DNA from: Candidatus Woesearchaeota archaeon
GTDB lineage: Archaea > Nanobdellota > Nanobdellia > SCGC-AAA011-G17 > JACPIM01
NCBI GenBank assembly: GCA_964432435.1
Contig: CAYSNL010000001.1
Coordinates: forward strand, 10,511-74,510
Reading direction: 5' to 3'
DNA: 64,000 nucleotides
Part shown: positions 30,368 to 48,224 of the stretch, in pieces
How the letters are laid out: every line of letters begins with the position of its first letter
Numbering within the stretch: the first letter of the stretch is position 1
Position numbers and translations under genes: made by a program
The notes under the pieces: generated by a model
Told to the model about the DNA's origin: nothing
Database searches by the model: none
Seen by the model: the letters and a program-made list of their open reading frames with translations, nothing else

Positions 30368-30568
30368 ATGACTCATAAGTTCTGTGAAGCTATACAAGAT
30401 TTTATAGATGGTTATCTTTCTTTGTCAGTAAAACCAAATCAAGTATATTTATTATCAAAAGATTTTCCAGGATTCGGAATTCCTATTTCATATTGCCCAT
30501 TTTGCGGGGATAAGCTAATAGAAAATCCTACGTATAATACAGAACAGAAAGGATTGGCGCCAGCATAA
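30368..30568 (+). CDS. Hypothetical small protein with C-terminal CPFC motif
   Basis: 66-aa ORF; TAAATG junction with next gene. Confidence 0.35.
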   Translation: MTHKFCEAIQDFIDGYLSLSVKPNQVYLLSKDFPGFGIPISYCPFCGDKLIENPTYNTEQKGLAPA

Positions 30569-31048: not shown

Positions 31049-32644
31049 ATGATTTCAATCTCATATGAAAAGCCAAATTTTATTCTTTCATTCCCATACA
31101 ATGAAGAAGATTTACGCCTTGTAAGAAGCTTGTCTGTTAGAGAATGGGACAAGAAACAAAAAGTCTGGAAAGTCTATCATTTAGCAATTAAAAGTCTAGA
31201 AGAGCTTAATAATACGGTTTGGTCAAAAGAGGCTCTAGTTGCTAAAGAAACTATCAATAGAATTTTATCTAAATGTATAGACTTTCAATTTAAAAAAGGA
31301 GAAGCCAGAGGATTTTTACGCCCATACCAATCAGCAGGGATTTCTTATTTAGCCTTTGTTAATCGCGGTTTTCTGAATGATGAAATGGGGCTTGGGAAGA
31401 CAGTTCAAGTTATACAAACCTTATTAGACTTAGACTGCCGAAAATCCTTAATTCTATGTTCAGCCACGTTAAAACGCAACTGGGAGAATGAATTTCTAAA
31501 GCACTTTAATATTCAACCATTAGTAATTACTGGAAATGCAGAAGAACGAAAAGAATTATGGAATTCTGATAATAAATTTCTAATAGCTAATTATGATTTG
31601 TTAAATAGAGACTGGGGTATCATACCGAAAAAATGGGATGCAATAATATGTGATGAAGTGATGCATCTCAAAAATCATGCGGCCACTAGAACAAAATTAG
31701 CTAAAAAGCTAATCAGTAAAGTTAGGATCCCATTGTCTGGAACATTGTTTGAGAAAAATATCTTTGAATTTCATTCTGTCTTAGATTGGGCTATTCCTGG
31801 GTTACTTCCGCCTTTTTATAGATATAAATACAGATATTGTGTATTTGATTTCAATGGAAAAGTAATAGATTATAAGAAAGATAAGCTAACAGAGTTATAT
31901 ACATTAACTGCCCCATTCATTCTAAGGCGCACAAAAGACAAAGTATTAACGGAATTGCCTCCGAAGATTTACAATTATGTCCCATTAGATTTAGATGAAA
32001 TGCAAAAAGAGGCTTATAAAGCAATAGCATCAGAGTTTATAGAATGGCTTAGAAAACAAACTGGAACTAATTGGGGATTAAATGCCTTACAAAAAAGGAT
32101 CAAACTAAGACAGTTTGTAGAGTTTGCTGATATAATCAATCTAAAAGTTCCAAATCCAAAATTAGATTGGCTAGATGAAATGTATGAAGCAACTAATAAG
32201 ATGGTAGTATTTTCATTCTTTGATGAATCTATAAAACGTCTTCAAAAGCATTTTAATACTAAATACTATATTTCAGGAAGTGTAGATGCTGACAAAAGAG
32301 TTGGTATAATAGACGAATTCAATGCAGAAGAGAAAGCCATATTAGTTTCTACAGATGCTGGCAAATATGGAGTAAATATTACAGGGGCTGATACAATTGT
32401 GCATTTCGGTTCAGTTGATAATCCAGCGACAATGATGCAGAGAGAAGATCGTCTACATCGTTTCGGTCAAAAATCAATAGTAAATGTATATAATCCTTAT
32501 TACGTAGGGACAATAGACGAAGGCATGATGAAAAAATGGCAGAAAGAGAGAGACAATCTAAAGGAGTTTGAAGAAGGCACTGAACTGATGGCTAAAGTAA
32601 ATTTATCAAGGACTGATTTTGAAAGGATGATATATGGCAACTAA
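31049..32644 (+). CDS. SNF2-family DNA helicase/translocase
   Basis: Motif I LNDEMGLGKT, motif II DEVMHLKN, C-terminal helicase domain. Confidence 0.8.
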   Translation: MISISYEKPNFILSFPYNEEDLRLVRSLSVREWDKKQKVWKVYHLAIKSLEELNNTVWSKEALVAKETINRILSKCIDFQFKKGEARGFLRPYQSAGISYLAFVNRGFLNDEMGLGKTVQVIQTLLDLDCRKSLILCSATLKRNWENEFLKHFNIQPLVITGNAEERKELWNSDNKFLIANYDLLNRDWGIIPKKWDAIICDEVMHLKNHAATRTKLAKKLISKVRIPLSGTLFEKNIFEFHSVLDWAIPGLLPPFYRYKYRYCVFDFNGKVIDYKKDKLTELYTLTAPFILRRTKDKVLTELPPKIYNYVPLDLDEMQKEAYKAIASEFIEWLRKQTGTNWGLNALQKRIKLRQFVEFADIINLKVPNPKLDWLDEMYEATNKMVVFSFFDESIKRLQKHFNTKYYISGSVDADKRVGIIDEFNAEEKAILVSTDAGKYGVNITGADTIVHFGSVDNPATMMQREDRLHRFGQKSIVNVYNPYYVGTIDEGMMKKWQKERDNLKEFEEGTELMAKVNLSRTDFERMIYGN

Positions 32645-33242
32645 CAAAACACAGTTAATTAGTCTAGATATAGAAACAAGCACTAGTGATGTAAATACAG
32701 GAGTCTTGTTATCCATAGCAATGGTTAGTTTTAACACAGGAGATAGAATAGAAAAAAATATCAGGCATCGTTATTTGTCATTAACTCCTGAAGCGATGAG
32801 AGTTAACCAAATTGATACTTTGATGCTAGACTCTGATACAAGAGATCCCTTAGAACAAGCAGAGGAGCAGCTAATGTGGTGGTTGGATAGAAATACTAGC
32901 CCAGAGCTGTCATTGTCTAGACTACAGCCAATCCCTGTCGGAATGAATGTAGGGTCCTTTGATATGCAGTTTGTAAGGAAATATCTTCCACAAATTTCTA
33001 AAAAATTCGGATATAGAAGTCTTGATTTGAATGCGCTATTCTTTGCAGAAGCATTAAAGGAGAATGAGGACTTCACAAAACTAAAAACTAGATACTATGA
33101 ACCAGCTATGGAATTTGCATCAAAAGTTGTGCCACACTTAAAAAAGCACAACCCATTATTTGATTGTTATATAAATTGTAGTCTATTGTCTCAAGTAACG
33201 AAGGTTGTACCAAAATGGATGTCAGAAGTAAGCATAAAATAG
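32634..33242 (+). CDS. DEDD-type 3'-5' exonuclease-like protein
   Basis: Exo I-like motif LISLDIETS near N-terminus. Confidence 0.45.
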   Translation: MATNKTQLISLDIETSTSDVNTGVLLSIAMVSFNTGDRIEKNIRHRYLSLTPEAMRVNQIDTLMLDSDTRDPLEQAEEQLMWWLDRNTSPELSLSRLQPIPVGMNVGSFDMQFVRKYLPQISKKFGYRSLDLNALFFAEALKENEDFTKLKTRYYEPAMEFASKVVPHLKKHNPLFDCYINCSLLSQVTKVVPKWMSEVSIK

Positions 33243-33649
33243 AAGACTACAATGCTTTAGATTTGAAAGAATATTGGCGCAAGCAATATAATAAGAAACA
33301 TAAAGAAGATTATTCTACCCACGGATATGGTGGCACAGAATTAAAGAATCTAAAGCAATTACTACAAGATTATGATGTCTATACTATTTTACTTGCAATT
33401 CCAGCAGCCCTAGAAGAATGTAATTCAATAAATATTTTTTGCTCAGAAATTGAAAAATACATTACTAACTATGAGTTCCCAAAAGCAGTGTTTTATTGTC
33501 TCACAAAAGGAGATAAAGAAATACAGCATAAATTACAGGATTTATTAGTTTTAGAAGCAAAGTGGTTACCAACAGCAAATGATTTGAAAAGAAAAGGAAC
33601 TATTGCAAGTGAAATTTATGAATGGATAAATACTTTAAATTTGGACTGA
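33215..33649 (+). CDS. Hypothetical protein
   Basis: 144-aa ORF. Confidence 0.45.
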   Translation: MDVRSKHKIEDYNALDLKEYWRKQYNKKHKEDYSTHGYGGTELKNLKQLLQDYDVYTILLAIPAALEECNSINIFCSEIEKYITNYEFPKAVFYCLTKGDKEIQHKLQDLLVLEAKWLPTANDLKRKGTIASEIYEWINTLNLD

Positions 33650-33909
33650 TTAATGCCAACTAGAGTTTATAAATGCCCAAATGGTCACATCATGGAAGTT
33701 AAAGAAGACTGGACTAAGCAATTAGAAATATGTCTAGTTTGTAAACAATCTGTCAAACGTATTCCACAATCATTTACCTTTTTTATGGAGAAGAAATAGA
33801 ACATGTTTAAATGGAAAGCAAAATGAACAACTTGATAATTTGCAAATGCACTCACTATAAAGCCCATCATTACAATGCCTATGGGAACCTAAAAAGGTGC
33901 TTGTGAAAC

Positions 33910-34371
33910 TTGCACGGTAAAACGTGTGACTGCCCCCAGTTCCAAGAGGATGCTTCTACGCTGACCTTGCGAAGTGTCTTCGCCTCTGTCTCTACCGTTG
34001 AGGCACCATCAAAAACTAATCCACTTGCAGATAGAGTGAAATACTTAGAAGAACAGCTTATTATTGCGGATAAAGATACCGCTACTCTAAAGGCTTGGGT
34101 TACTGACTTGCAATCAATGGCTGATGTCTTAAAGAAGCATATAGAAGCCTGTCCCAAACATCCAATGAGTGACTTGACAAAAGAATTGTGTCAACTACGG
34201 AAGGCTGCCGAACAGGTCAGAGAAGAATACAACATGCTAGCGGGTTACGTTAGTAAGGCATGGGACATAATGGGTGGTGCAGGCGATTTTGATTCTATAT
34301 ACTCGGATGTCTACCTAGCATTGGAAAACGCTAATGCCTTCTTGAATAATCCCAAACAGGAGAACCAATGA
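33910..34371 (+). CDS. Hypothetical protein (5' end lies in a locally GC-rich island)
   Basis: 153-aa ORF; helical, coiled-coil-like C-terminal part. Confidence 0.4.
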   Translation: MHGKTCDCPQFQEDASTLTLRSVFASVSTVEAPSKTNPLADRVKYLEEQLIIADKDTATLKAWVTDLQSMADVLKKHIEACPKHPMSDLTKELCQLRKAAEQVREEYNMLAGYVSKAWDIMGGAGDFDSIYSDVYLALENANAFLNNPKQENQ

Positions 34372-34408
34372 TGTTAAGGTGGGCAGATCAGTTATCTAAA
34401 GGCGTTTA

Positions 34409-35629
34409 ATGGAGTCATATAACTATATAGAGTCAGGAATTGTCTTTTCATTAAAAGACAGAAGATCATTAGAGAAGTTTAAATACCAAAGTAAAGATTT
34501 CTCGGTTCACCAAAAAACAATAGATTTTGTATTAAACTATTCTGAAAATTATGAGAATTTTCCAACTGAAGCTCTATTATTAGAGAAATTTCCAGACCTT
34601 GATAAAAATGCCGTTGGATTAGACATAGAATATTGCCTCCAAGAATTTGACAAACAACTAATATTCCGGAAGACAGTAGAAGTAATAAATAGCAATAAAG
34701 ACCTATTAAAATCAGAGCCTAAAAATGCCATAAAGAAAATATTGTCCGGCCTGGAAGACGTAGAATTATCATTTGATGATGACATAGAGATATATGACAA
34801 TGGGGCACTCAGTAGGTTAGAAGACTATAATAAAAAGGTAGAATTACGGAATAAGGGACTAAAAACACTAGGCATTCCAACTAGCTTCAAAACAATAAAT
34901 AGAACTACAATCGGGTGGATGAAAGGAGATTTAGTTTCTATCTTTGCTAGGCCTGGCATTGGAAAAACTTTTTTATTGATTCATGCAGCAGCAGTGGCCT
35001 ATAAATTTGGGTTCAAGGTGTTGTTCATTTCTACAGAGATGTCCAAAGCTGCTATCAATGCTAGGATGGATGTAATGCTAGGGAAGATGTATGGATATGA
35101 CTTTTCACACACGTCAATTAGGAGAGGAGAAGGCTTAGATAAAGAAAAATACAAGGAATTCCTAACAAAGCTAAATTCAAAGCGTCTAATAGTTTTAGAT
35201 AGCATAGAAAGAAATGCTATAACATATAATGGGATAGCCTCAAAAGTTAGGAAATATAAACCAGACTTGCTAGTTCTAGATGGGATACAATTAATAGCTT
35301 CTGAAAAATCATCAAATGCTGTATGGGAAAAAATGTTTAACTTATTCTATGGCATAAAGACCCTATCATTATCATCACAAATAACTAGCATTGTTTCTAC
35401 TCAAGCGAATAGAAAAGCTGCTGATTTATTTGTACCGCCCAAAGTCGCAGAAGTAGCATTTGGAGACGCTTTAATACAAGCATCAGATTATGCTATGTCT
35501 CTATGCAGAGTCAGAAATGAACCCTTACAGCTATTAGTGCAATTTCAAAAATTTAGGGATGAGGCCTTTCCCGCCGATTATGTAACAATGCATTGGGACG
35601 TAGATAAAGGAGATATAAAAGAAATATAA
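34409..35629 (+). CDS. DnaB-like replicative DNA helicase
   Basis: Walker A ARPGIGKTFLLIHAA followed by FISTEMS, as in DnaB RecA-like domain. Confidence 0.8.
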   Translation: MESYNYIESGIVFSLKDRRSLEKFKYQSKDFSVHQKTIDFVLNYSENYENFPTEALLLEKFPDLDKNAVGLDIEYCLQEFDKQLIFRKTVEVINSNKDLLKSEPKNAIKKILSGLEDVELSFDDDIEIYDNGALSRLEDYNKKVELRNKGLKTLGIPTSFKTINRTTIGWMKGDLVSIFARPGIGKTFLLIHAAAVAYKFGFKVLFISTEMSKAAINARMDVMLGKMYGYDFSHTSIRRGEGLDKEKYKEFLTKLNSKRLIVLDSIERNAITYNGIASKVRKYKPDLLVLDGIQLIASEKSSNAVWEKMFNLFYGIKTLSLSSQITSIVSTQANRKAADLFVPPKVAEVAFGDALIQASDYAMSLCRVRNEPLQLLVQFQKFRDEAFPADYVTMHWDVDKGDIKEI

Positions 35630-35838
35630 TGCCATATCTTGAAATTCCATATGAATTAGCAGATGAAATAGCGGATTGGGCGGGTGTCTATGGGGGCCAT
35701 GATGAAATATGTAATCCTAGACAAAGAATACAAGATAAATGTAGAATCTGTTTTACTGAAGAATTAGTAGATAGAATTAAAAAAAGTGTGGAGAATGAAG
35801 AAAAATATTATGCAATGTATCTTAGACCTCCTATATAA
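35629..35838 (+). CDS. Hypothetical small protein
   Basis: 69-aa ORF coupled to the helicase gene. Confidence 0.4.
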   Translation: MPYLEIPYELADEIADWAGVYGGHDEICNPRQRIQDKCRICFTEELVDRIKKSVENEEKYYAMYLRPPI

Positions 35839-35846
35839 TACTACAT

Positions 35847-35921
35847 GGCGGGGTGGAGCAGCGGCAGCTCGTTGGGCTCATAACCCAAAGGTCGTTGGTT
35901 CGAATCCAACCCCCGTCTCCC
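35847..35921 (+). tRNA. tRNA-Met (anticodon CAU); anticodon stem has the three G-C pairs typical of initiator tRNA. A lysidine-type tRNA-Ile2 cannot be excluded
   Basis: Acceptor GGCGGGG/CCCCGTC. D-arm GAGC-AGCGGCA-GCTC. Anticodon arm TTGGG-CTCATAA-CCCAA. T-arm GTTGG-TTCGAAT-CCAAC. Confidence 0.75.
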
Positions 35922-36307
35922 AAGACAATAATTAAAACTTTAAGAGCATAAAGGAGATGTAAAATGGAAAAACAACGCAACAAAGAAGTCCGAATTTTAG
36001 ACGACAAAGAAGGTAGTGAGCTTTTCTATTCATGGATGAAAGAATTGACATTAGACCAGCAAAACTGTATAAGAATATTCCTAAGATCAAATGATTTTAA
36101 ACATGAGTAAAACATAGGATTAAAATGAAGAAACAAACAACACATCATATTCCTAATTCAATAAAAAAAGACTTACCAAATCCTAATTGCAAATGTGGTA
36201 AACCAATGCGGATTGTGATTCAACCAGGCCAACATATTCATCCATGTCCCGTTCATCCAGACAAAGCCGTGTATGGCTTAAATATAATTTATAGAAAACC
36301 ACTAAGA

Positions 36308-36385
36308 GCAGCAATAGCTCAATTAGGTAGAGCAGATGTCTTATATACATCCAGGCTGAAGGTTCAAATCCTTCTTGCTGCACCA
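36308..36385 (+). tRNA. tRNA-Ile (anticodon UAU, reads AUA), with encoded CCA
   Basis: Acceptor GCAGCAA/TTGCTGC. D-arm GCTC-AATTAGGTA-GAGC. Anticodon arm GATGT-CTTATAT-ACATC. T-arm GAAGG-TTCAAAT-CCTTC. Discriminator A then CCA. Confidence 0.7.
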
Positions 36386-36457
36386 GTTAAATTAACTATT
36401 GGAAAATGCCCCTAGAACCTCCTAGAATGAAATCTGCAGGGGTTCTTTAAAAGAGTT

Positions 36458-37342
36458 ATGGTAAACTACTTAGACTGGGTTAAAAAGATTGGAATTGATG
36501 GTCGTTTTAGTGGAAATGAATACATAGCCTGCTGCCCATTACACGGAGAGAAACATCCTAGCTTTAGTCTCAATTTACAAACAGGGTTGTGGAATTGTTT
36601 TTCTAATTGTGGTGGAGGGAATTTTGTCTCTTTAGTTCAAAAAGTATATGATGTTAGCTTATTAGAAGCAACTAAACTAATATCTGATGAGATGCCTGGA
36701 CAGATAAATTTCGACTTAGACATTGAAGAAGACAATACAAATTTAGTGCTTCCAGAGGTTAAATTCCCATTTGTTAGAAATAATTTTCCAAAATGGATAT
36801 TAGATAGAGGCTTTACCAAAGACATACTAACTAAATGGAAGTGTGGCTTTAATCCAGATAGTGGTTCATTTGTAATTTCAGTATATGATGAAAAGAAAAG
36901 ATTAGTTGGTTGGATATGCCGACAGCCTAATGGAAAAGAGCCAAAGTACATAAATTCTACGGGTCTAGAAAAATCAAAAATAGTTTTTGGCCTATATAAT
37001 ATTAAGCAGAGAAGAATAGTATGCGTAACAGAGGGGGCATTAAATACAATTTGGTTAAATCAACATGGTTTTTCTTCAGTGGCAATTTTAGGGGCAAGAC
37101 TATCAAGACGACAGGAGGAACTTTTATCAATAGCACCAATAACTGAACTAATTATTTGTTTAGACAATGATGAAGCAGGAAGAAAAGGAAGAGATGAAAT
37201 ATATGCCATAATGAAAAAATACTTTCAAATATCATTTATACAAATCCCAAATGAATACAATGATGTTCAAGACATTAAAGATCCAAAATTACTGACAAAC
37301 ATAATTAAAAACAGAACAATGTTCAAAGAAGGAGTTATTTAG
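36458..37342 (+). CDS. DnaG-like DNA primase (zinc finger + TOPRIM)
   Basis: CHC2-type zinc finger CCPLHGEKHPSFSLN near N-terminus. Confidence 0.75.
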   Translation: MVNYLDWVKKIGIDGRFSGNEYIACCPLHGEKHPSFSLNLQTGLWNCFSNCGGGNFVSLVQKVYDVSLLEATKLISDEMPGQINFDLDIEEDNTNLVLPEVKFPFVRNNFPKWILDRGFTKDILTKWKCGFNPDSGSFVISVYDEKKRLVGWICRQPNGKEPKYINSTGLEKSKIVFGLYNIKQRRIVCVTEGALNTIWLNQHGFSSVAILGARLSRRQEELLSIAPITELIICLDNDEAGRKGRDEIYAIMKKYFQISFIQIPNEYNDVQDIKDPKLLTNIIKNRTMFKEGVI

Positions 37343-38086
37343 ATGCCTGGAATTAACAGAATAAAGTCAGAAGCAGCAGACGAGAAATCACAACAATCTA
37401 GTTCAGAGCTCTGGCCAAAAGATGGAGATGAAGTATTTGGCCTAATAGTATCTGACGGGAATGATGATAATGACTTAAGATTTGATAAGTTCTATACCCA
37501 TTCTGTCCAAGGAAAAAGAGATGATGGCTCGAATCTTTGGAAGAATTCTCTCTGCCCTTCTAAAGAGGAAGAAGTATGTAAACTATGTGATAAGGATGTT
37601 AGACCAGCGAGAAAATTTGGGTTTTGGATGTATGTAAATTATATTTTACATAAAGAGAAGAAGAATGATTCCTGGGAAGCTGTGAAAAAGAGGGCCTCGG
37701 GAGAAGTACAATATAAAGAAGACATAAATGACTTTAGAGTATTTTCTCATGGGTTTGGGTCTAAAGACTATCTTTTCAATCAAGTTGTAGATATATTCAA
37801 TGAGTATGGTTCATTGAATAAATATGTTATTAGAATCAAAAGGACAGGTTCTGGTATGAAAGATACATCTTATGCTATAACCAGTACCACTAAAATATTT
37901 GAGCTGCCAAAAGAAATGCAGACTAAAGTGAAAGAATTGCCTGGGATTAGAGAATTCTTTAAAAAGCAATGGTCTCCTAGAGTTCAAACATCAGAAGACA
38001 ATAAAGATGCTAAATTATTAACTCAAGAAAATGATGAACTAGGTTTGGGAGATATAGATGAAGACCCTACAGAATCTTTGTTTTAA
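37343..38086 (+). CDS. Putative ssDNA-binding protein
   Basis: Acidic C-terminal tail ending in Phe (DELGLGDIDEDPTESLF), as in T7 gp2.5 and T4 gp32. Cys cluster CPSKEEEVCKLC. Position after primase. Confidence 0.45.
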   Translation: MPGINRIKSEAADEKSQQSSSELWPKDGDEVFGLIVSDGNDDNDLRFDKFYTHSVQGKRDDGSNLWKNSLCPSKEEEVCKLCDKDVRPARKFGFWMYVNYILHKEKKNDSWEAVKKRASGEVQYKEDINDFRVFSHGFGSKDYLFNQVVDIFNEYGSLNKYVIRIKRTGSGMKDTSYAITSTTKIFELPKEMQTKVKELPGIREFFKKQWSPRVQTSEDNKDAKLLTQENDELGLGDIDEDPTESLF

Positions 38087-38184
38087 ATTTTCTGAGTTAT
38101 AATCTAGTTCTTTAGTTCATTATTTTATAGTTTAATAGATGATTATAAGATAAGAATATTTATTTATAGTATAGTCCAAAGCAT

Positions 38185-38300
38185 AAATAGGTCCATTATG
38201 GCGCAACAGGACCTGTATTAGTATATATAAGGACCTGTATTGGACTCATTAGAGCACAAGACCTATAATGGACCTAATGGTATATAGGACCTATACTAGA
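38185..38300 (+). repeat. Iteron-like array of GGACCT-containing repeats
   Basis: GGACCTGTATT at 38209-38219 and 38231-38241; inverted copies TAGGTCCATTATGG (38188-38201) and ATAATGGACCTA (38265-38276); GGACCTATAC at 38288-38297. Flanked upstream by a very AT-rich 100 nt. Confidence 0.5.
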
Positions 38301-38313
38301 TTGAATAGAATAA

Positions 38314-39513
38314 ATGATTAATTTACTATATGATCTACAGCTAAGCGTATTAGACTCATTAGATGACGGGAATTTTATTATGACTACGGACTCTAATGTA
38401 AATGTAGCCACTGTATTGATAAAAAATTTACTTAATTTGTCTAATAACATAAAAATTTATGTTTTAGTGCCGCCAAAGTCTAAAATCCTAAACTTTAAAA
38501 ATTATTTATTAAGTGACATACAATCTTCCAATTTAGACTTTATTGAGTACAAATATTATGGAAATCCGTTCGTAGATAGGATGTCCTTTTTTAGTCGAGA
38601 TTTAATTCAATCTCTGAAGAACTTGAAAGTTGATATTGTCTATACTAATGATCCATGCAAAGTTCTGGGGTATAAGACAGTGCTATATAGTCTATTATCA
38701 AAACCGGTTCCAGTGATGTCCAGAAATCACTGGGTGACCGGAAAGACAGACTATAAGGTTCCACAATACATTGACTTTGCTCTTAGACAATGCGAAGGAG
38801 CTTTGTATTCTGATAATGCTACTTTCAATTCAAAATTTGCTGTCGATTCATTCTTATATAATGCAGAACAATACTTGAATAAAGAGACGATAGAGTCACT
38901 GTCTAAAAAATTAGATCATATAGAATGTGTAGACATAGATAAAATTGATCAATATAGAACTGATGAAAAGTTTGATGAATTTACTATGATTTTTGCAAAT
39001 AGACTTAGTTATTACACTGGATGGAAAGAGACATTAGACGCTATAAATAGACTATGGAAAAGACGAAAAGATTTTCAAGTCATAGTCCCAGACCCTGGAA
39101 ATAAATTCAAACAAGAAGACTTATTTTCTGAATATAATTTTATTAAGACAGTGAATAAAGATACTTGGACTCATGAAGATTACATAAAAACCTGTTGGAA
39201 AGTAGATGCCTGTATAGGTAACCATAAATATCCGGCTACTTGGGGCGGACTGGCTATAACAGAACCAATGGCAGCGTACAGTATTCCTATTATTCCTAAA
39301 AGACACGCTTATTTAGAAATGTTTGATTCAGACTCTCATTCTTTTTTTACTGATGAAAATGATCTTATTAGAGCCATTGAATTTTATTTAGACAATAGAG
39401 AAATTTTAGAGAAAGATAAGCTAAGAGCCAGAGCCTTTTGTGAAAAGAATCTTTCACCTCAAAAATTTGCTGAATTTATTTTAGATAAGCTTAATATGCT
39501 ATGCATATCATAA
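38314..39513 (+). CDS. GT-B (GT4-like) glycosyltransferase
   Basis: C-terminal WGGLAITEPMAAYSIPII matches the GT4 E-x7-E motif (EGFGLPVLEAMACGTPVIA type). Confidence 0.6.
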   Translation: MINLLYDLQLSVLDSLDDGNFIMTTDSNVNVATVLIKNLLNLSNNIKIYVLVPPKSKILNFKNYLLSDIQSSNLDFIEYKYYGNPFVDRMSFFSRDLIQSLKNLKVDIVYTNDPCKVLGYKTVLYSLLSKPVPVMSRNHWVTGKTDYKVPQYIDFALRQCEGALYSDNATFNSKFAVDSFLYNAEQYLNKETIESLSKKLDHIECVDIDKIDQYRTDEKFDEFTMIFANRLSYYTGWKETLDAINRLWKRRKDFQVIVPDPGNKFKQEDLFSEYNFIKTVNKDTWTHEDYIKTCWKVDACIGNHKYPATWGGLAITEPMAAYSIPIIPKRHAYLEMFDSDSHSFFTDENDLIRAIEFYLDNREILEKDKLRARAFCEKNLSPQKFAEFILDKLNMLCIS

Positions 39514-40436
39514 TAACTGGTTGTGATAAAACTGGAAAAAGTTTTTTGGCTAGAGAGTTAAGCAAACGTTTATATTTTCCAGTTATCAATAGGCTAGTTC
39601 CAAAACAAAATATTTTTATAGAATGTATTGACACGTTAACTGAATTAAAAAGTCCAATGATAATAGATAGATTTCATATAGATGAAGAAGTCTATGGACC
39701 AATAAAACGTGGAAAAAGTAGATTTGATTTTAGACAATATAAGATAATAGAGCTTTTGATGTTGATGTTAAAAACAGTTAATGTTTATTGTATAGATTCG
39801 GAAAGTTCAATTCAGTCTAGAATAAACTTATCAAAAGAAAATGAATACATATCTAGTAACGAAGTCAACATAATTTTACGGTCATATGATAATTGCTTAA
39901 GGACCAGTATTTTAACTTGGAATACGTATAAATTAGGAGATGATATTAGTCCATTAGTAAGTTTGATACAAAAACAAACACTGAATTTAAGACGCAGACT
40001 TAATTTTTTGTCCTATAGGACAATAGGAAATTTACTCGGATCTATTTTAATAGTTGGAGATAGATATGGAGACAAATTATTGCCACCTCTAATTCCATTT
40101 GGTAATAATGAGCCAGGACTAAGATTATTTTTAGCTTTAGAAAAGTCTAATCTGTCTTGGTCTGATATAATAATAACTAACTCAATTAAATTAAATAAAA
40201 ATGAAATCGGACTAGAAATTGACAATAAAAAAGCTTTAATTGAAGAATGTTCTTTGCCGAATATAAAAGTCATAGTCTGTTTGGGAAATAACGCGTATAA
40301 TAATGTATTGGCCATTAAACCAAAAATTTCGAACAATGTCATAATAAACAAAATACCTCACCCGAGTGCTTGGTTTGTCTATCAAAATAAATCCATAGAA
40401 AGTTATTCGAGACTAATAGATGCAGCAATACTTTAA
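39501..40436 (+). CDS. P-loop (deoxy)nucleotide kinase-like domain fused to a UDG-superfamily-like domain
   Basis: N-terminal IIITGCDKTGKSFLAREL Walker A. C-terminal IPHPSAWF (HPS motif B of uracil-DNA glycosylase fold) preceded by ILIVGDRYGDK in the motif A position. Confidence 0.45.
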   Translation: MHIIITGCDKTGKSFLARELSKRLYFPVINRLVPKQNIFIECIDTLTELKSPMIIDRFHIDEEVYGPIKRGKSRFDFRQYKIIELLMLMLKTVNVYCIDSESSIQSRINLSKENEYISSNEVNIILRSYDNCLRTSILTWNTYKLGDDISPLVSLIQKQTLNLRRRLNFLSYRTIGNLLGSILIVGDRYGDKLLPPLIPFGNNEPGLRLFLALEKSNLSWSDIIITNSIKLNKNEIGLEIDNKKALIEECSLPNIKVIVCLGNNAYNNVLAIKPKISNNVIINKIPHPSAWFVYQNKSIESYSRLIDAAIL

Positions 40437-42384
40437 AAAATCAATGACGTTGGTTAAGTCTAAATTAGACTTTTCAGATCTTTTAAGGTTTATTGCAAAG
40501 TCACAAAGCCTAGTCATAGATACTGAGACTTCAGGTCTAAGACTATGGCAAGATGATTTTGTGTCTGCTATTGGGATTGGAGATATAGACAGACAATTTT
40601 TTCTAGATTTGCGTCCTGATTGTTTGGATTATGAAATTAGTTTAAGTGAACTATTTGACTCTTTAAGAAAGACTAAAGTTATTATTGGCCATAATATAAA
40701 ATTTGACTTAGCCGGCCTATTAAGACTAGGATACGAGGTTCCAGATAATCAAGAAATTCATGACACAATTGTAATGGCTAGGTTGTTATCAATAGAAAGA
40801 TTTCCTAAGTTAGGTCTCACTCCTTTAATCCAACAGTACATTTCAGAGTTTGGTAGTCAATATGATATAGACTTTAAGCAGTTCTTAAAGACTAATAAAA
40901 TAAAGCTGTATTCTCAGTCCCCTAGTTTAGAGCTTGGGATCTACTGTTTAAATGATGTTTACTATACAGCTAGTCTATATGAAAAATTTAAACAATCATT
41001 AGTTTCTTTAAACTTGGTTGGACTTTGGAATCATGAGATTAAAGTAACTAAGACAGTTTGGAAAATGGAAAAACAAGGAGTTTTAATAGACAAGAAATAT
41101 TGTAGCACGGCCTTAAGTGTAATTAGCTTAAAGTCTAAGCAATTGGAGTCTGAAATTAACGAAGTGGCTGGTGAAGATGTAAACTTAGGAAGTAACAAAC
41201 AGCTATCAAAATTTTTTAGGGGTCTTAAATTAGAGGCTCCAACAAAAACTAAGAAGGGGGGCGAAAGTTGGGGAGAGGCTTCTTTAATTTTATTAGACCA
41301 TCCAGTAGCTAAGAAATTGTTATCTTGGAGAGGACTTCAAAAATTAAAGACATCATATTTTGAGACATACTTAGAAAGAGAAAGTCCATTACATTGCTCA
41401 TTTAAAAACTGGGGTACTGTTACTGGACGGTTTTCTTGTGTTGATCCTAATTTTCAACAGCTACCTAAAGAATTGACTAAAATTTTTGATGAAGATGAGA
41501 CTAAAGAACTGTCAGAATTTCAAAAGGCTGCCATAGCCTTAGTGAAGGCTGATAAAGAACGCCAAGGAGGCGGTAAACTTTTAATAAAGTCTGTGTCTTC
41601 ATATGAAGATGATATATTTGATGAAGAGAAACACATTTCTGCTAAGAGGTCTATAGTTCCTAGAGATGGAAATGTTTTTCTTAGTTTTGACTATTCTCAA
41701 ATGGAACTTAAGATTTTATTTTTTTATCTAAACAATGATGAAGCTAGACAATATTTGAGTGATCCAGACTGGGATGGGCATTCTTGGGTGGCCACTAAAA
41801 TTTGGGGGATTTCAGATAAAGATCCTAGTTTTCCAGCTTTCCGAAAATTAGCCAAGGCTATAAACTTTGGAATTATATACGGAGAAGGTGATAGACTATT
41901 AGCGGCTCAACTAGGGAAGACTGTTAACGAAGCTAAGAAGTTTAGAGAAGAGTATTATGCTAAAATTCCTGGAATAAGAGATCTGATTAATGGGATTCAT
42001 AAAAAGGTACAGACTAGAGGATATGTTTTCAATTACTTTGGACGGAGATATTATGCAGACCAAGACAGAGAATATGTTTTATTAAATTATTTAATCCAAG
42101 GAACGAGCGCTGATTTAATTAAAAATAGAATGGTGGCGATTGATAATGATTTAGAATTAAGGTCTATTGGACTAAAGCTAATCTTACAAATTCATGATGA
42201 ACTAATTTTTGAATGTCCAAAAGATAAGATTGATTATTCAGTTAAACTAGTTAAACAGATTCTAGAATTTCCAGTTCTAAAGGTTCCATTGGCCTCTAAA
42301 GCATATATTCACTATCCTAGTTTGGCTAGTAAATTTGATTATGGATTAAATTGGAGAGATAATGCTGGACTTTCAATCAATTGA
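40420..42384 (+). CDS. Family A DNA polymerase (Pol I-like) with 3'-5' exonuclease domain
   Basis: Exo I LVIDTETSGL; motif B RKLAKAINFGIIYG; motif C LQIHDELIFE. Confidence 0.9.
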   Translation: MQQYFKKSMTLVKSKLDFSDLLRFIAKSQSLVIDTETSGLRLWQDDFVSAIGIGDIDRQFFLDLRPDCLDYEISLSELFDSLRKTKVIIGHNIKFDLAGLLRLGYEVPDNQEIHDTIVMARLLSIERFPKLGLTPLIQQYISEFGSQYDIDFKQFLKTNKIKLYSQSPSLELGIYCLNDVYYTASLYEKFKQSLVSLNLVGLWNHEIKVTKTVWKMEKQGVLIDKKYCSTALSVISLKSKQLESEINEVAGEDVNLGSNKQLSKFFRGLKLEAPTKTKKGGESWGEASLILLDHPVAKKLLSWRGLQKLKTSYFETYLERESPLHCSFKNWGTVTGRFSCVDPNFQQLPKELTKIFDEDETKELSEFQKAAIALVKADKERQGGGKLLIKSVSSYEDDIFDEEKHISAKRSIVPRDGNVFLSFDYSQMELKILFFYLNNDEARQYLSDPDWDGHSWVATKIWGISDKDPSFPAFRKLAKAINFGIIYGEGDRLLAAQLGKTVNEAKKFREEYYAKIPGIRDLINGIHKKVQTRGYVFNYFGRRYYADQDREYVLLNYLIQGTSADLIKNRMVAIDNDLELRSIGLKLILQIHDELIFECPKDKIDYSVKLVKQILEFPVLKVPLASKAYIHYPSLASKFDYGLNWRDNAGLSIN

Positions 42385-43249
42385 TTCTGCCTATACTGAG
42401 ATATTAAACATCTTAGATAAAGACGGATTTTTAAATAAGAGACGAAATGGAGAAGTAAAAGAATGCTATCATTTAATGATGTGTTTGTCTAATCCAAGAC
42501 ACAGAGTAATTCAAAATTCAAGCAGAAAGATAAGTCTATCAATGTTAGTCGGAGAATTTTTTTGGATTTTGTTTGGTAGAGATGATTTGGATTTTATATC
42601 CTTCTATAATTCAAAAATGATTGAATACTCCGATAATGGAAAGTCTTTATTTGGGGCATATGGAAAGCGTTTGACTAGTCAATGGTCTGGAGTTATAGAA
42701 AGAATCTTATCTGATAAACTAACTAGACAGGCAGTATTACCGATTATAGATAAAAGTGACTCTACGGCTATGACTAAAGATTTTCCATGTAATAATCTTC
42801 TTCATTTTTGGAGTCAAGACGGCACTAGTCTAAATTTAACCGTGTATATTAGATCTCAGGATATGTTTTTAGGATTTCCGTATGATGTTTTTCATTGGAC
42901 AATGTTTTTAGAGAACATGGCTATGACTTGTAATATGAGACTTGGGAAATACTATCATATAATGCAAAATTGTCATTATTACATTAAAGACTATGAAAAA
43001 GTTCAGTTGATAAAACAAGCTAATAGTTTTGTTAGTTTACCAATGAACTCTATATTAGAAAGTTGTTTTGATAAGTCTGTAGAAAATAGACTAATAGAAT
43101 CAGAATCAAAAACTCGGCAGAACGGGGTTTATGTAAACTTATTCGATGAAAAGTCAATTTGGTCAGACTTTATAAAAATAGTTCAGCATAGAAAAAGCAA
43201 TAAAAAAGTTTCTTTATTTGATGGAGCTTTAACTAATGTCTATAGATAG
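42362..43249 (+). CDS. ThyA-family pyrimidine C5-modifying enzyme, predicted deoxycytidylate hydroxymethylase
   Basis: Aligns with thymidylate synthase: FGAYGKRLTSQW (YGKQWRAW); DFPCNNLLHFW (APCHAFFQFY, catalytic Cys retained, PCH to PCN); RSQDMFLGFPYDVFHW (RSCDVFLGLPFNIASY). The substrate-specifying Asn is replaced by Asp, as in T4 dCMP hydroxymethylase. NCHYY (DTHLY). Confidence 0.65.
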   Translation: MLDFQSIDSAYTEILNILDKDGFLNKRRNGEVKECYHLMMCLSNPRHRVIQNSSRKISLSMLVGEFFWILFGRDDLDFISFYNSKMIEYSDNGKSLFGAYGKRLTSQWSGVIERILSDKLTRQAVLPIIDKSDSTAMTKDFPCNNLLHFWSQDGTSLNLTVYIRSQDMFLGFPYDVFHWTMFLENMAMTCNMRLGKYYHIMQNCHYYIKDYEKVQLIKQANSFVSLPMNSILESCFDKSVENRLIESESKTRQNGVYVNLFDEKSIWSDFIKIVQHRKSNKKVSLFDGALTNVYR

Positions 43250-43580
43250 ATTATTCAAAGATCAAGTTAGATTTACAGATAAGATCATTAATGATTTAAG
43301 TGTGAATGTATCTAAAACTGAGTTAATAAAAGAATATTTGCTGTCTTTGCATGATGAACTATCAGAAATTCTTCATTGCACAAATTGGAAATGGCATAGA
43401 GAAGATTACGGATCAGACATAGACTATGAGAATTTATATGTGGAATTAATAGACACACAAAAGTTTTTATGGGGGCTGATGCATATTTGTGGAATGGACA
43501 TAAATAAGTTTGAAGAAGTGTATGATAAGAAAAGTAAAATTGTAGAAGAGCGTTTAATGAAATTGAAAGGGAAACAATAG
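43236..43580 (+). CDS. MazG-like all-alpha NTP pyrophosphohydrolase (candidate dCTP/dUTP-clearing enzyme)
   Basis: 114 aa all-helical with acidic cluster (ELSEILHCTNWKWHREDYGSDIDYEN...ELIDTQKFLWGL); position between the ThyA-like gene and ThyX. Confidence 0.45.
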   Translation: MSIDRLFKDQVRFTDKIINDLSVNVSKTELIKEYLLSLHDELSEILHCTNWKWHREDYGSDIDYENLYVELIDTQKFLWGLMHICGMDINKFEEVYDKKSKIVEERLMKLKGKQ

Positions 43581-44363
43581 TTGAGTCAATTAATTCTACC
43601 TAAGGTATTCATCATAGGAGAGTCTAAGATTGATTCTGTTGGTTTGCAACAATTATTAAACCATTTGAGTGTTCCTGCATGGAAATCAGATGCTGACACC
43701 GATGTAGAAAAACTTCTGGAAGTCTATGGAAGGGCTTGCTATAAGTCATTTGATGTTATTCTAAATCCTAATTTAACTCGTGTAAGAAAGCACAATGATG
43801 AATACATAAAGAACATTATAGAAAAAGGAGACGGTAGTGTATTAGAACATGGTATGATTAATTTCTTTTTTGCTGATGTGAGTAGAGTTTTTACCCATGA
43901 GTTAGTTAGGCATCGTGTCGGAACAGCCATAAGTCAAGAGAGCTTAAGATTTGTTAGATTGACAGATTTGAACTGGTACGCCCCAATTTGTATTCAAGAG
44001 GATGTTCAGGCTATGGAGATTTTTTCAAGGACACTCAATAGTTTAAGTCAACTTCAAAAAGACTTGGCAGACCTATATAATATAGATAACATGTCTTTTG
44101 AGAAGAAAAAGGAATTAACTTCAGCTTTTAGACGTCTTGCCCCTGATGGGTTAGCTACAAATATCGGGTGGTCTGCAAATATTAGAACAATTAGACATGT
44201 ATTGGAGATGAGGACTAATCCCTCAGCTGAGGAAGAAATCCGATTAGTCTTTTCTCAAGTAGGAAAACTAATGAGGGAAAGATATAAGACGTTGTTTGAT
44301 GACTATGAGACCGAGATTGTTAATGGAATTGATTGGTACAAAACTAAACATAGAAAAGTATAA
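43581..44363 (+). CDS. thyX: Flavin-dependent thymidylate synthase ThyX
   Basis: ThyX signature RHR-x7/8-S: HELVRHRVGTAISQES; TTG start. Confidence 0.8.
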   Translation: MSQLILPKVFIIGESKIDSVGLQQLLNHLSVPAWKSDADTDVEKLLEVYGRACYKSFDVILNPNLTRVRKHNDEYIKNIIEKGDGSVLEHGMINFFFADVSRVFTHELVRHRVGTAISQESLRFVRLTDLNWYAPICIQEDVQAMEIFSRTLNSLSQLQKDLADLYNIDNMSFEKKKELTSAFRRLAPDGLATNIGWSANIRTIRHVLEMRTNPSAEEEIRLVFSQVGKLMRERYKTLFDDYETEIVNGIDWYKTKHRKV

Positions 44364-44375
44364 GGAGATCTAGAA

Positions 44376-44606
44376 TTGCAAGAGCCATTAAGTTTTGAAA
44401 AAATAATTACTGACTGTAGAGAGAAGCTGACTAAACTTCAAGCCACACTCGAGAGTGTACATCAAATAATATTGACCATATCTCAGTCTTATTACTGGAC
44501 TCCTGAATGGCAAGCCAAAGAGAAACGAGCAGACGAGGATGCTCGGGCTGGAAGGTCAAAACAGTTCAAATCTGCCGAAGAATTGATCAGGGAGTTGAAG
44601 TCATAG
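44376..44606 (+). CDS. Hypothetical small protein
   Basis: 76-aa ORF with GGAGA RBS. Confidence 0.35.
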   Translation: MQEPLSFEKIITDCREKLTKLQATLESVHQIILTISQSYYWTPEWQAKEKRADEDARAGRSKQFKSAEELIRELKS

Positions 44607-44766
44607 TCTATGCCCGAGTGGACATTGGGGAGCTCAGATGGCTTCAAGGCTGATTATAAGGCAAAGCCACCGATGTTCAGCCGAGGAAATATGAATAAGG
44701 CTCAAATGATTGATGATGTAGAAGATGCTATAAGCATTCTTATATGTGCTTTATTGAGGAATAACC

Positions 44767-45246
44767 ATGGTAAATAGACCTTCATGGGATGATTACTTCT
44801 TGGGGATTGCTAAAGTTGTAAGTAGCAGGGCTTCATGCCCTAGGGCAAGCTCAGGATGTGTTTTAGTTCTAGATAAGAGAATTTTGTCTACAGGTTATAA
44901 TGGGGCTCCTGTTGGAGAAAAGACGTGTTTAGATATAGGATGTAATGTAAAAGACAGACATTGTGTCAGGGCAGTACATGGCGAAAGAAATGCCATTTTG
45001 TGGGCTGAAAAATATTTTTCAGTAAAGCAACTAAAGGAAGCGACTTTGTACGAATACTATGCAGCTCATAGCGATGAATCAGTAAAGAATTATTATCCTT
45101 CTCAAGATTCTGTAGAGTCATTAGACTTTTTTCCGTGCAAACCATGTAAAGAATTGATGTTAGATAGAAAAATCAAAGAAGTAATTTGTCAATATGGGAA
45201 TGGAATTATAAAAGTCTATAAGAACTATCATATTGGAGAAAAGTAA
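44767..45246 (+). CDS. Deoxycytidylate (dCMP) deaminase
   Basis: HGERNAILWA (HAE-type zinc ligand motif) and FPCKPCKELM (PCxxC). Confidence 0.75.
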   Translation: MVNRPSWDDYFLGIAKVVSSRASCPRASSGCVLVLDKRILSTGYNGAPVGEKTCLDIGCNVKDRHCVRAVHGERNAILWAEKYFSVKQLKEATLYEYYAAHSDESVKNYYPSQDSVESLDFFPCKPCKELMLDRKIKEVICQYGNGIIKVYKNYHIGEK

Positions 45247-45390
45247 AATGGGAAATATTCAAGATTTATCTATTTATGATCCAGATATTTGGCTTAAGAT
45301 GTGTGTGACTTTAAAGATTGAGCTGCCAGACGAGGTTTGGAAAAAGTATATAGATGGCCTATATCCTAGTTTATTTTTTAGGGGGTAGAA

Positions 45391-45594
45391 ATGTCGCAAG
45401 CTTATAAGTGTGATATGTGTAAATGTTTATTTGATTATAGACCAACAAGAGAATTAGAGTTTTCAGAGCATTACGGGCCAGAGCCTGATGCTAAGAGAGT
45501 TCATGCAATAGCTGAAATGAGAGGTGATTATTGTAGAGATTGCTTAGCGGAGATTTTAAGAAATAAGATAAATTATTTGGGAAGACAAAAATGA
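45391..45594 (+). CDS. Small zinc-ribbon protein
   Basis: CDMCKC...CRDC. Confidence 0.35.
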   Translation: MSQAYKCDMCKCLFDYRPTRELEFSEHYGPEPDAKRVHAIAEMRGDYCRDCLAEILRNKINYLGRQK

Positions 45595-45658
45595 AAGAAA
45601 AGATTGGTAAAAAGCTAAATTTTGACCCATTATTCGGAGAAGACGGGGAGTAAATAAA

Positions 45659-45871
45659 TTGGCAAAAATTTCTCAGCAACTTTCTTTTACATTTAGAATC
45701 GGGGTAGATCAAAAAGGTCAATTTGCCAAAGTCACAGTACAAATTGATGAAATAGATACAGAATTACCAATAAAGGAGCAATTAGAGAAAGTTGATGGCG
45801 CTCTAGATAAAGTCTGGGCATACATAAAGAAGAAAGTTGATGCCCAGATAGATGAAGTATTAGATAATTGA
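45659..45871 (+). CDS. Hypothetical small protein
   Basis: 70-aa ORF; TGAATG junction with next gene. Confidence 0.35.
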   Translation: MAKISQQLSFTFRIGVDQKGQFAKVTVQIDEIDTELPIKEQLEKVDGALDKVWAYIKKKVDAQIDEVLDN

Positions 45872-46687
45872 ATGAAATCTTATTCTTTGTTAAATATAAC
45901 TGGGAATAAGAGAAGCATAGCAGACCAAATTTTTTCTATTTTACCATTAGATTGTTCAGGATTAACTTATGTTGATCCATTTTTTGGGTCTGGAGGAGCA
46001 TATTTCAATGTCTCAAGAAATTTTTTAAGCTATGAGTGTTCTGATTTATTTCCGCTTATTATAAATTTTATATGCCAAGATTTTTCAAATGAAATTTTAA
46101 GCGATTATTATAACAAAGTAACACAAAAATGGGACTTCCATAATAAAGATGCTTATTATAATTTTAGAGAATTTTGGAATGAAAATAGAGAAAAAGGTCC
46201 TAGAATTAAATATATAGGTTTTATGCTTTTAGCGGGAGCATGTATTAATGGTCTATATAGATTTGGCCCAAATGGTTTTAATCAGTCGTATGGAAATAGG
46301 ATAATGAAGAAAGAACAACTTTTAGACTATAAGAAACATATTAAGTCTAATAGTAGTTTTTCAATAAAGAATTTTTTAGACATAGTCCCGTCTAAAACTT
46401 CAGTATTGTATTTAGACCCCCCATATTCTGATACAGGGGCTTTAACTCAAATGTTTGGATTTTGGGAATTGGGTTTGGCGCAAGATTTAAATCTTATAAG
46501 ACTAATTAAGTCTCAAGATGAGTGTAACGGTAAGTTTATTCTTAGCACTATTAAAAATTCTTTTTTACATAATGAATTAAAAGACACATTTAGAAATATT
46601 GACATAAAGAAAACTTATAAAGTAAGTGTAGGAAAGCATTTAGCTTCGTCTCATGAAGAAATTATAGTTACAAATCTAGGAGATTAA
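45872..46687 (+). CDS. Dam-like N6-adenine DNA methyltransferase
   Basis: Motif I DPFFGSGGAYF and motif IV LYLDPPYSDT. Confidence 0.75.
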   Translation: MKSYSLLNITGNKRSIADQIFSILPLDCSGLTYVDPFFGSGGAYFNVSRNFLSYECSDLFPLIINFICQDFSNEILSDYYNKVTQKWDFHNKDAYYNFREFWNENREKGPRIKYIGFMLLAGACINGLYRFGPNGFNQSYGNRIMKKEQLLDYKKHIKSNSSFSIKNFLDIVPSKTSVLYLDPPYSDTGALTQMFGFWELGLAQDLNLIRLIKSQDECNGKFILSTIKNSFLHNELKDTFRNIDIKKTYKVSVGKHLASSHEEIIVTNLGD

Positions 46688-46689
46688 TC

Positions 46690-47625: not shown

Positions 47626-47813
47626 AATTAAATATGACTTGTCAATCTTGTAGTGGAAAGCTTACAGCGGTTAAGTCACTGCTGGAATCTAATGATTTTA
47701 CTGCAGTAGTTTTCTATAAAAGAATTGATAATAATAATAAGTATCCAATATATTGGTGGTATGATTGCTATTTGTGGGGCAGTTATTTGGACAATAATTG
47801 GGAGTTTATATAA

Positions 47814-48140: not shown

Positions 48141-48224
48141 ATAGATGATAGAGATTGTAATAATAACGTGTCTGGGTTTTACGGTAGGCGTGCTTTTGAG
48201 TAAGTTAGCTAGCACTAAATATAA

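Follow-up and report, generated by a model that had tools for sequence, protein, structure and literature searches.

What role could be played by a gene that joins a nucleotide kinase to the fold of a uracil-DNA glycosylase (UDG), and in which pathway would its product act? The question is raised by an open reading frame (ORF) at 39501..40436 on the forward strand of a 64,000-nucleotide stretch of DNA, hereafter the window, which corresponds to positions 10,511 to 74,510 of contig CAYSNL010000001.1 (assembly GCA_964432435.1, deposited as a Candidatus Woesearchaeota archaeon). The window (1..64000) is phage DNA, and the fusion gene is linked, here and at other loci, to genes for cytosine-specific homologues of thymidylate synthase (TS). 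The reading we favour, to which we give an even chance, is that the fusion is a two-domain enzyme of a phage pathway that swaps cytosine for a C5-modified cytosine, with a UDG domain that would recognize and probably excise uracil-type bases.

A kinase and a UDG fold in one reading frame

The fusion gene is one unbroken ORF of 311 amino acids with an ATG start, overlapping the upstream glycosyltransferase gene by 13 nt and the downstream gene for a family A DNA polymerase (PolA) by 17 nt. Residues 1-171 (39501..40013; this and all other features of the gene are on the forward strand) form a P-loop deoxynucleoside monophosphate (dNMP) kinase domain of the thymidylate-kinase/YorR-like type, and residues 172-311 (40014..40433) form a UDG-superfamily domain of ∼135 residues without an Fe-S cluster. 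An AlphaFold2 (AF2) model of the whole protein, built on 15 homologues, reached a pLDDT of 90.7 and a pTM of 0.90. An earlier note, made by reading the letters of this DNA, had proposed a kinase N-terminus and a UDG-fold C-terminus, and both assignments were borne out by Pfam, PHROGs, Foldseek and the AF2 model, in which the UDG fold is present. The UDG-like part was larger than the 'C-terminal third' named there, taking up the C-terminal 45% of the protein (residues ∼172-311). The same note had taken the ORF to be a single gene, and this agrees with the presence of both domains, at full length, in more than 100 diverged homologues. The database entry for an identical protein calls it hypothetical and assigns it to a 'Candidatus Daviesbacteria' metagenome-assembled genome (MAG).

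To collect homologues, a profile was searched against 1.84 billion representative proteins; 4158 matched at E≤1e-3, of which 1008 reached E≤1e-10 and 70 reached E≤1e-30. Both domains are present in 116 of the best 150 when these are clustered into representatives at 50% identity. The set of 164 proteins derived from two homology searches together with the window protein contained 116 fusions of 280-340 amino acids that span both domains and 42 stand-alone kinases of ∼160-170 amino acids. When the 116 fusions were scanned one by one with Pfam, UDG was detected in 61 and Thymidylate_kin in 54. Conservation across these fusions falls, as judged by alignment, on the predicted catalytic elements of both domains.

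In the kinase domain, a Walker A sequence (P-loop), GCDKTGKS, can be read at residues 7-14 (39519..39542), and its G7, G12 and K13 are kept in at least 97% of the 116 fusions. The motif DRFH-x2-E-x2-YGP-x2-R at residues 56-70 (39666..39710) is the counterpart of the DR(Y/H) acceptor-site motif of thymidylate kinases, and is comparable to the 'DRHDLSTQAYQGGGRG' motif of E. coli Tmk. Conservation within this motif was high for D56 (98%), R57 (100%), E62 (96%) and Y65 (99%), and stood at 82% for R70. A PHROGs search placed residues 2-140 in a 'thymidylate kinase' family, and the only solved structure matched by sequence was YorR of the SPbeta prophage (residues 3-144, E 5.5e-5). Walker A, a DR(Y/F/H) acceptor motif and a thymidylate-kinase-like overall fold are thus all present, as in P-loop nucleoside monophosphate kinases. 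Thymidylate kinases such as those of M. tuberculosis (1G3U) and vaccinia (2V54) share with the fusion the Walker A, the DR(Y/F/H) motif and a LID-like R-F-x3-G-E segment. In contrast to them, the window protein has no match to Pfam Thymidylate_kin (PF02223) at E≤1, while the 54 matching relatives do so at E≤1e-3 (best 1.4e-8), and the genomic partner of the fusion is a cytosine-specific TS homologue. YorR (2AXP, 3KB2) differs from the fusion in being a stand-alone protein of 173 amino acids with no assigned function and no UDG-like domain.

Evidence for the second domain came from several directions. Pfam UDG (PF03167) matched residues 183-297 at E 4e-6, its score of 27.3 bits exceeding the curated gathering threshold of 24.3, and a profile of 40 C-terminal domains, searched against the PDB, matched family-4 UDG structures at E 5e-12 in the register VG[ED]/VGEGPG, PF/PF, TNxxK/(I/C)NvvKCRP, LGxxA/LGxxA and HPxYxxR/HPSYLLR. 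Foldseek returned a probability of 1.0 and an E-value of 4e-6 to 1VK2, 1L9G, 1UI0 and UdgX. The domain has the alpha/beta fold of the UDGs, and its assignment is far beyond chance.

The motifs expected of such a fold could be located individually. The equivalent of motif A is GDRYG at residues 186-190 (40056..40070), aligned to VGEGPG of 1L9G and 1UI0; its acidic position 187 is Glu in 57 and Asp in 52 of the 116 fusions, and is D187 in the window protein. It is followed by the loop IPFGNNEPGL at residues 198-207 (40092..40121), in which PF aligns to the PF of 1L9G, 4ZBX and 1UI0 and so places its Phe on the base-stacking Phe of family 4 (F200 is present in 79/116). TNS at residues 226-228 (40176..40184) is equivalent to 90-TNAV-93 of UdgX, which bears the uracil-reading Asn; N227 is found in 113/116 fusions and aligns to the (I/C)N of family-4 structures. 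Motif B, IPHPSAWF, occupies residues 285-292 (40353..40376) and retains H287-P288-S289, with H287 and P288 kept in 113/116. The placement of GDRYG and IPHPSAWF given in the earlier note was the same. Position 293, where family 4 has its DNA-binding or wedge Arg, is Arg in 100/116 fusions and Val in the window protein.

Mutational work on family 4 and UdgX has assigned the activation of water to the Glu of GE(A/G)PG (E52), the holding of uracil to N91 and H178, and binding to the DNA backbone to R184 of motif B (PMC10359453). Three of these four key positions are present in the window protein (D187, N227 and H287). It had been suggested that a motif as degenerate as GDRYG marks a domain that binds a base rather than excises it. 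This is not established, as the acid (Glu or Asp in 109/116), the Asn and the His are retained; a non-canonical or non-catalytic role is nevertheless possible for the window protein, where the wedge Arg is lost, motif A is altered and the domain is near neutral. Most fusions have a basic C-terminal domain, with a median pI of 9.2, as would be expected of a module that binds DNA.

Membership of the UDG superfamily follows from the profile, the fold, motif B and the Asn. The family-4 UDGs (1L9G/1VK2 of T. maritima, 1UI0 of T. thermophilus, 4ZBX of S. tokodaii) and UdgX (6AIL) show the same elements in the same order, namely VG-acid, PF, T/I-N, LG-x-x-A and H-P-S. They differ in size, with ∼190-200 residues in family 4 against ∼135 here, and in the Fe-S cysteine segments, which the fusions lack: the CRPP...C segment of 1L9G faces gaps in the profile alignment, and there is no conserved Cys column among the 116 C-terminal domains besides an A/C position in 'CLG' (median one Cys per domain). 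GDRYG in place of GE(A/G)PG, Val in place of the motif B Arg and the fusion to a kinase are further differences, and glycosylase activity is only predicted here. A strict family-4 UDG (UDGa) was rejected on account of the missing Fe-S cysteines, the GDRYG form of motif A and the absence of the motif B Arg from the window protein. We would place the domain in a family of its own within the UDG superfamily, one that lacks the Fe-S cluster.

The fusion family and its probable link to cytosine modification

Within the family, motif A usually takes the form G[ED]xxN and has only the Gly-acid pair in common with family 4. Fourteen of the 116 fusions, the window protein among them, make up a derived subclade, which is distinguished by a motif A of the form G[ED][KR]YG, by the absence of the wedge Arg, by a near-neutral C-terminal domain (median pI 7.4) and by a nearly invariant loop, DKLLPPLIPFGNNxPGL. 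In gp315 of phage G (locus L007, 6992..7987; loci other than the window are given by our L numbers) motif A reads AQNPG, nearer to the GINPG/GMNPG of MUG/SMUG1 than to family 4, and motif A is therefore highly plastic across the fusion family.

Cultured carriers of the fusion are Stenotrophomonas phage AXL3, Pseudoxanthomonas phage PW916, Bacillus phage G and Actinomycetia phage DSL-LC01, and it was also found in an uncultured 'Caudoviricetes sp.'. Where the protein has a functional label in the databases, the label is thymidylate kinase. The UDG-like domain was observed on its own in Ralstonia jumbo phage RsoM2USA (MG752970.1, 265836..266210), where it is annotated 'hypothetical' and has 39% identity to residues 198-321 of AXL3 gp29. 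No published description of the kinase-UDG architecture was found in the literature. Both folds and the type of pathway were already known; new are the joining of the two domains, how widely it occurs and how closely it goes with cytosine-specific TS homologues.

The association with TS homologues recurs from locus to locus. A TS homologue follows the fusion gene directly, usually with an overlap, in AXL3, DSL-LC01, L008, L011, L014, L016 and L022, and lies within ∼2 kb of it in phage G, the window and L021. In the window it is encoded at 42362..43249 on the forward strand (Pfam Thymidylat_synt, E 7e-20) and is a predicted dCMP C5-hydroxymethylase or methylase. Its best relative in the PDB was the CMP hydroxymethylase MilA (5B6D, E 4e-20), compared with 1e-13 for thymidylate synthase; Cys146 is kept and Asp stands at the position of E. 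coli ThyA N177. All nine complete TS homologues, from the window and eight other loci, have this Asp and retain the catalytic Cys. Asp at ThyA N177 predicts dCMP rather than dUMP as substrate (10.1101/2024.12.05.627091), and the TS homologues are thereby marked as cytosine-specific. Other genes recurring near relatives of the fusion encode dUTPase or dUTPase_2, MazG/PRA-PH, deaminases and glycosyltransferases, including two alpha-glucosyltransferases in phage G.

This setting agrees with published signatures of phages with modified cytosine. Neighbourhoods in which a TS homologue with Asp177 is accompanied by deaminase, PRA-PH and PolA genes mark phages with 5-methylcytosine (5mC) or 5-hydroxymethylcytosine (5hmC), and a dNMP kinase, gp1 in T4, is required to move modified dCMP into DNA (10.1101/2024.12.05.627091). 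DNA of AXL3 resists 35 of 37 restriction enzymes, and the only two that cut it have A/T-only sites (PMC7504290). According to the supplement to PMC8670742, contigs with modified cytosine are enriched in Thymidylate_kin; UDG was not found in the accessible text of the MetaGPA paper and supplement. In phages with modified DNA, active UDG domains have been described that are joined to the polymerase (10.1101/2025.03.26.645540).

The polymerase gene is a less constant neighbour. The order glycosyltransferase, fusion, DNA polymerase, TS homologue is conserved between L021 (4778..10239) and the window (38314..43249), and the polymerase slot is occupied by a family B enzyme of 825 amino acids in L021, compared with a family A enzyme in the window, which is a non-orthologous displacement of the polymerase within a conserved operon. 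That the slot order has been kept despite this exchange suggests co-expression of the fusion with whichever polymerase is present. A universal link to family A polymerases was rejected, as the neighbouring polymerase is of family B in L021 and is Pol III alpha in L014, and the polymerase lies ∼7 kb off in AXL3; the conserved partner is the TS homologue.

A proposed role and the alternatives to it

The T4 pathway for hydroxymethylated cytosine comprises a dCTPase, dCMP hydroxymethylase, the gp1 kinase, glucosyltransferase and dCMP deaminase, together with a separate dTMP synthase. Every member of this set has a counterpart in the window, and the role proposed for the kinase is that of gp1. We infer fairly strongly, with the substrate taken from gene context, that the N-terminal domain is the monophosphate kinase of the pathway, acting on 5-(hydroxy)methyl-dCMP; hydroxymethyl-dCMP (hm-dCMP) had also been guessed as the kinase substrate in the earlier note, and this fits the adjacent TS homologue, with its Asp at ThyA N177 and MilA as closest solved relative. 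The channelling of a modified nucleotide, also raised in that note, is pure conjecture. T4 gp1, a kinase of hm-dCMP, dTMP and dGMP, has no UDG-like domain, unlike the window fusion.

In the proposed pathway the dC pool would be reshaped by a nucleoside triphosphate (NTP) pyrophosphatase and deaminases, and dCMP would be converted to 5-(hydroxy)methyl-dCMP by the Asp177 TS homologue. The thymidylate-kinase-like domain would then phosphorylate this product, as gp1 does in T4, the polymerase encoded directly downstream would incorporate the modified nucleotide, and the DNA would be glycosylated by the GT4-like enzyme encoded directly upstream. The modified base of the window phage would thus probably be 5hmC, afterwards glycosylated. 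For the C-terminal domain we infer, weakly, that it recognizes uracil-type bases in the DNA of the phage, near the polymerase, and probably cuts them out; its targets would be U arising from an enlarged dUMP/dUTP pool, or T and 5-hydroxymethyluracil (5hmU) arising from deaminated modified cytosine.

Labour would then be divided as it is in SPO1-like and SP15-like phages, whose polymerases carry a UDG domain. The UDG domains on phage family A polymerases (active in SPO1-like and SP15-like phages, inactive in N4-like phages; phiLo, 9QHS) resemble the present one in placing a family-4-like UDG on the machinery of replication or nucleotide supply. They differ in that the UDG domain of the window is joined to a dNMP kinase, with the polymerase a separate gene downstream whose reading frame overlaps, and in that the pathway target is cytosine for the window fusion, by its Asp177 TS homologue, and thymine for the UDG-polymerase phages. 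The recently described link of UDG domains to the polymerases of thymine-modifying phages would in this way reach phages that modify cytosine, where the UDG domain has another partner.

Several observations weigh against this role. In the window protein motif A has Asp for Glu and Arg-Tyr for the (Ala/Gly)-Pro of family 4, Val stands at the wedge position and the C-terminal domain is only mildly basic (+3), so that canonical DNA binding and catalysis may be weakened. The proposal does not explain why both activities sit in one polypeptide, and hydroxymethylation and methylation are not separable by sequence alone. A close relative, P0027, is a kinase without a UDG-like domain: it is a stand-alone protein of 172 amino acids (L019, 1156..1674) which ends directly after the inter-domain helix. 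The UDG-like domain is therefore dispensable for the kinase and has been recently gained or lost. A split-gene version of the fusion was sought among the relatives; P0027 is followed by a gene (L019, 1646..2149) with the exonuclease motif FDIETDD, which is polymerase-like and not UDG-like, and the contig of P0056 is only 612 bp long.

It has to be considered whether the UDG fold is catalytic at all. Its part might instead be one of binding, whether to DNA, to a base or to the polymerase, by which a modified-dNMP kinase would be anchored at the replisome and supply dNTPs on the spot, much as D4 of poxviruses serves as a processivity subunit. We consider this somewhat unlikely, but it is serious for the window protein because its subclade has lost the wedge Arg and much positive charge, in addition to the altered motif A. 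The near invariance of the subclade loop suggests a new constrained surface, the gene lies directly upstream of a polymerase of family A (window) or B (L021) in this subclade, and the predicted pTM would indicate a rigid two-domain body. Tethering would also be in keeping with the inactive UDG domains of N4-like polymerases and with a UDG position shared with the Mpox replication complex (10.1101/2025.03.26.645540). The pocket acid, Asn and His are, however, kept in the window protein and in ∼95% of the family, beyond what a purely structural part would need, and polymerase adjacency is not general, given the distance in AXL3 and the Pol III alpha of L014. A pool-sanitizing role, in which the UDG-like domain is an N-glycosidase or binding site removing or sensing dUMP or 5hm-dUMP beside the kinase, would make sense of the fusion to a mononucleotide kinase; the window subclade, having lost the wedge Arg and positive charge, would suit a non-DNA substrate, and a structure of UdgX with bound dUMP exists (6AJP). 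The wedge Arg and basic surface kept in most of the family point to DNA instead. No member of the UDG superfamily is known to turn over mononucleotides, and we regard this role as very unlikely.

Two further alternatives concern the kinase as much as its partner. That an ordinary thymidylate kinase, making dTDP, and an ordinary uracil-DNA glycosylase, repairing uracil, were fused by chance, with no connection to base modification, would suit the database label of the relatives and the presence of ThyX, by which dTMP is made. It is improbable in view of the cytosine-specific Asp177 type of all nine neighbouring TS homologues, the glycosyltransferase, deaminase and NTP pyrophosphatase genes that recur around the fusion and the heavy restriction resistance of AXL3 DNA (PMC7504290), as well as the failure of the window protein to match the Pfam thymidylate kinase model and the lack of family-4 defining features in its UDG part. 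The protein might also be a composite DNA-modifying enzyme, in which the UDG fold flips out a hydroxymethylated pyrimidine and the P-loop domain phosphorylates its hydroxymethyl group in the manner of the 5-hmdU DNA kinases (5-HMUDK). P-loop kinases acting on a base within DNA do exist (PMC8989533), the short junction between the domains and their rigid predicted arrangement (pTM 0.90) would suit such an enzyme, and hhalign of the family against the 5-HMUDK M6 gp54 gave a 93% probability. This similarity is confined to the P-loop, BLASTP aligning residues 2-34 only, and the DRF-E-Y-R motif has no counterpart in M6 gp54; the N-terminal domain, moreover, has the mononucleotide-acceptor motif of thymidylate kinases and also occurs as a stand-alone kinase, and no amino-acid:DNA transferase, pyridoxal phosphate or radical S-adenosylmethionine partner genes were seen within ±10 kb. 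A composite enzyme is thus highly improbable.

The pairing of 5-HMUDK with aGPT-Pplase in thymidine hypermodification was considered as well, since there, too, a P-loop kinase stands beside a 'DNA-glycosylase-like' protein among phage genes for base modification (PMC8989533). It was rejected, as the similarity to M6 gp54 ends after the P-loop and the partner TS homologue is cytosine-specific; thymidine hypermodification starts from 5hmU, and the pathway of the fusion from cytosine. The aGPT-Pplase fold is predicted to be that of a helix-hairpin-helix glycosylase and not of a UDG (PMC8989533), and the window protein gave no match to aGPT-Pplase Pfam models at E≤1.

A cytosine-replacement enzyme whose UDG domain acts on uracil-type bases is still preferred, and a bolder form of it, unlikely as it stands, may be mentioned. 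The C-terminal domain would then be a new Fe-S-free UDG family with a target beyond plain uracil, physically coupled to the kinase that supplies modified dNTPs, so that one device would both feed and police a genome-wide base replacement. If the target were unmodified cytosine, host or mis-built DNA would be marked for destruction; if it were T or 5hmU opposite G, the products of deaminated 5mC and 5hmC would be recognized. If the preferred reading holds, hundreds of phage proteins now labelled 'thymidylate kinase', 'UDG' or 'hypothetical' would become one component of cytosine replacement, and finding the fusion in a phage genome could then flag the presence of modified cytosine. The fusion would also provide a natural kinase, other than that of T4, for putting 5m- or 5hm-dCTP into DNA. 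Its C-terminal domain defines a compact Fe-S-free branch of the UDG superfamily, and new glycosylase specificities are of practical value in sequencing and base-editing chemistry.

Neighbouring genes and other cargo of the window

The fusion gene is part of a run of genes on the forward strand, 38314..44363, in which neighbouring stops and starts overlap. The first gene of the run (38314..39513) encodes a protein of 399 amino acids predicted to be a GT-B/GT4-like glycosyltransferase of the retaining type. Pfam Glycos_transf_1 was detected below its cut-off (E 4e-5), and a profile of the family searched against PDB sequences gave a best match of only E 0.15, and structure prediction was therefore needed. 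The AF2 model (pLDDT 90.3) matched MshA, BshA, HepE and glycogen synthase in Foldseek at E 1e-13 to 1e-12 with a TM-score of ∼0.7, by which the glycosyltransferase neighbour named in the earlier note is upheld as GT-B/GT4-like. Homologues of this protein share contigs with homologues of the fusion. BLASTP detected no significant homology between the window glycosyltransferase and the proteins encoded upstream of the fusion in L011 and L008; the L011 protein has, by eye, a GT4-like 'EGFG...E' motif.

Downstream of the fusion lies the gene for the family A DNA polymerase (40420..42384), which includes a 3'-5' exonuclease domain and lacks any UDG domain (DNA_pol_A E 2e-73, DNA_pol_A_exo1 E 3e-16). 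The TS homologue gene is followed by a gene for an all-alpha NTP pyrophosphohydrolase of 114 amino acids (43236..43580), a candidate dCTPase or dUTPase, which matched phrog_173 (E 5e-6) and phrog_18650 'dUTPase' (E 1e-3) and had no Pfam match, and by a gene for the flavin-dependent thymidylate synthase ThyX (43581..44363; Pfam Thy1, E 1e-33), a separate source of dTMP.

A dCMP/cytidine deaminase of 159 amino acids is encoded at 44767..45246 on the same strand (phrog_174, E 7e-31; Pfam dCMP_cyt_deam_1 was detected on the identical gene in L003), and a second, shorter deaminase of 112 amino acids, with H-A-E ... P-C-x-x-C, at 29422..29760, also on the forward strand. Deaminases that prefer 5-methyl- or 5-hydroxymethyl-dCTP are reported from modules of this type in a recent preprint (10.1101/2024.12.05.627091), and by analogy either of the two could be of this kind. 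An adenine methyltransferase of the D12 class (Dam-like) is encoded at 45872..46687 on the forward strand, adjoining recA (46690..47625), and the phage may bear adenine methylation besides the predicted cytosine replacement.

The phage nature of the window is evident from genes for a portal protein (61163..63082), a large terminase subunit (56496..58121) and ribonucleotide reductase (large subunit, 58081..60354), from four tRNA genes and from the placement of nearly all ORFs of at least 120 amino acids on the forward strand. The deposit of identical proteins under Daviesbacteria, a MAG of the candidate phyla radiation (CPR), is either a mis-binned phage contig or a phage or prophage of a CPR bacterium. 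Four large forward-strand ORFs, at 6991..11241 (1416 amino acids), 22256..25291 (1011), 15334..17415 (693) and 4509..6035 (508), had no PHROG match at E≤1e-4; their products are probably tail or structural proteins, from a lineage of phages that has been little sampled. The tRNA genes, all on the forward strand, are those for His(gtg) (26458..26529), Leu(taa) (26579..26662), Met(cat) (35847..35920) and Ile(tat) (36308..36385); the anticodons of the Ile and Leu tRNAs read A-ending codons, in keeping with stretches that appear AT-rich by eye. The window also encodes a homologue of a translation initiation factor that resembles IF3 in sequence (28233..28718, forward strand), matched over its full length by phrog_9787 (E 1e-36), which is unusual cargo for a phage.

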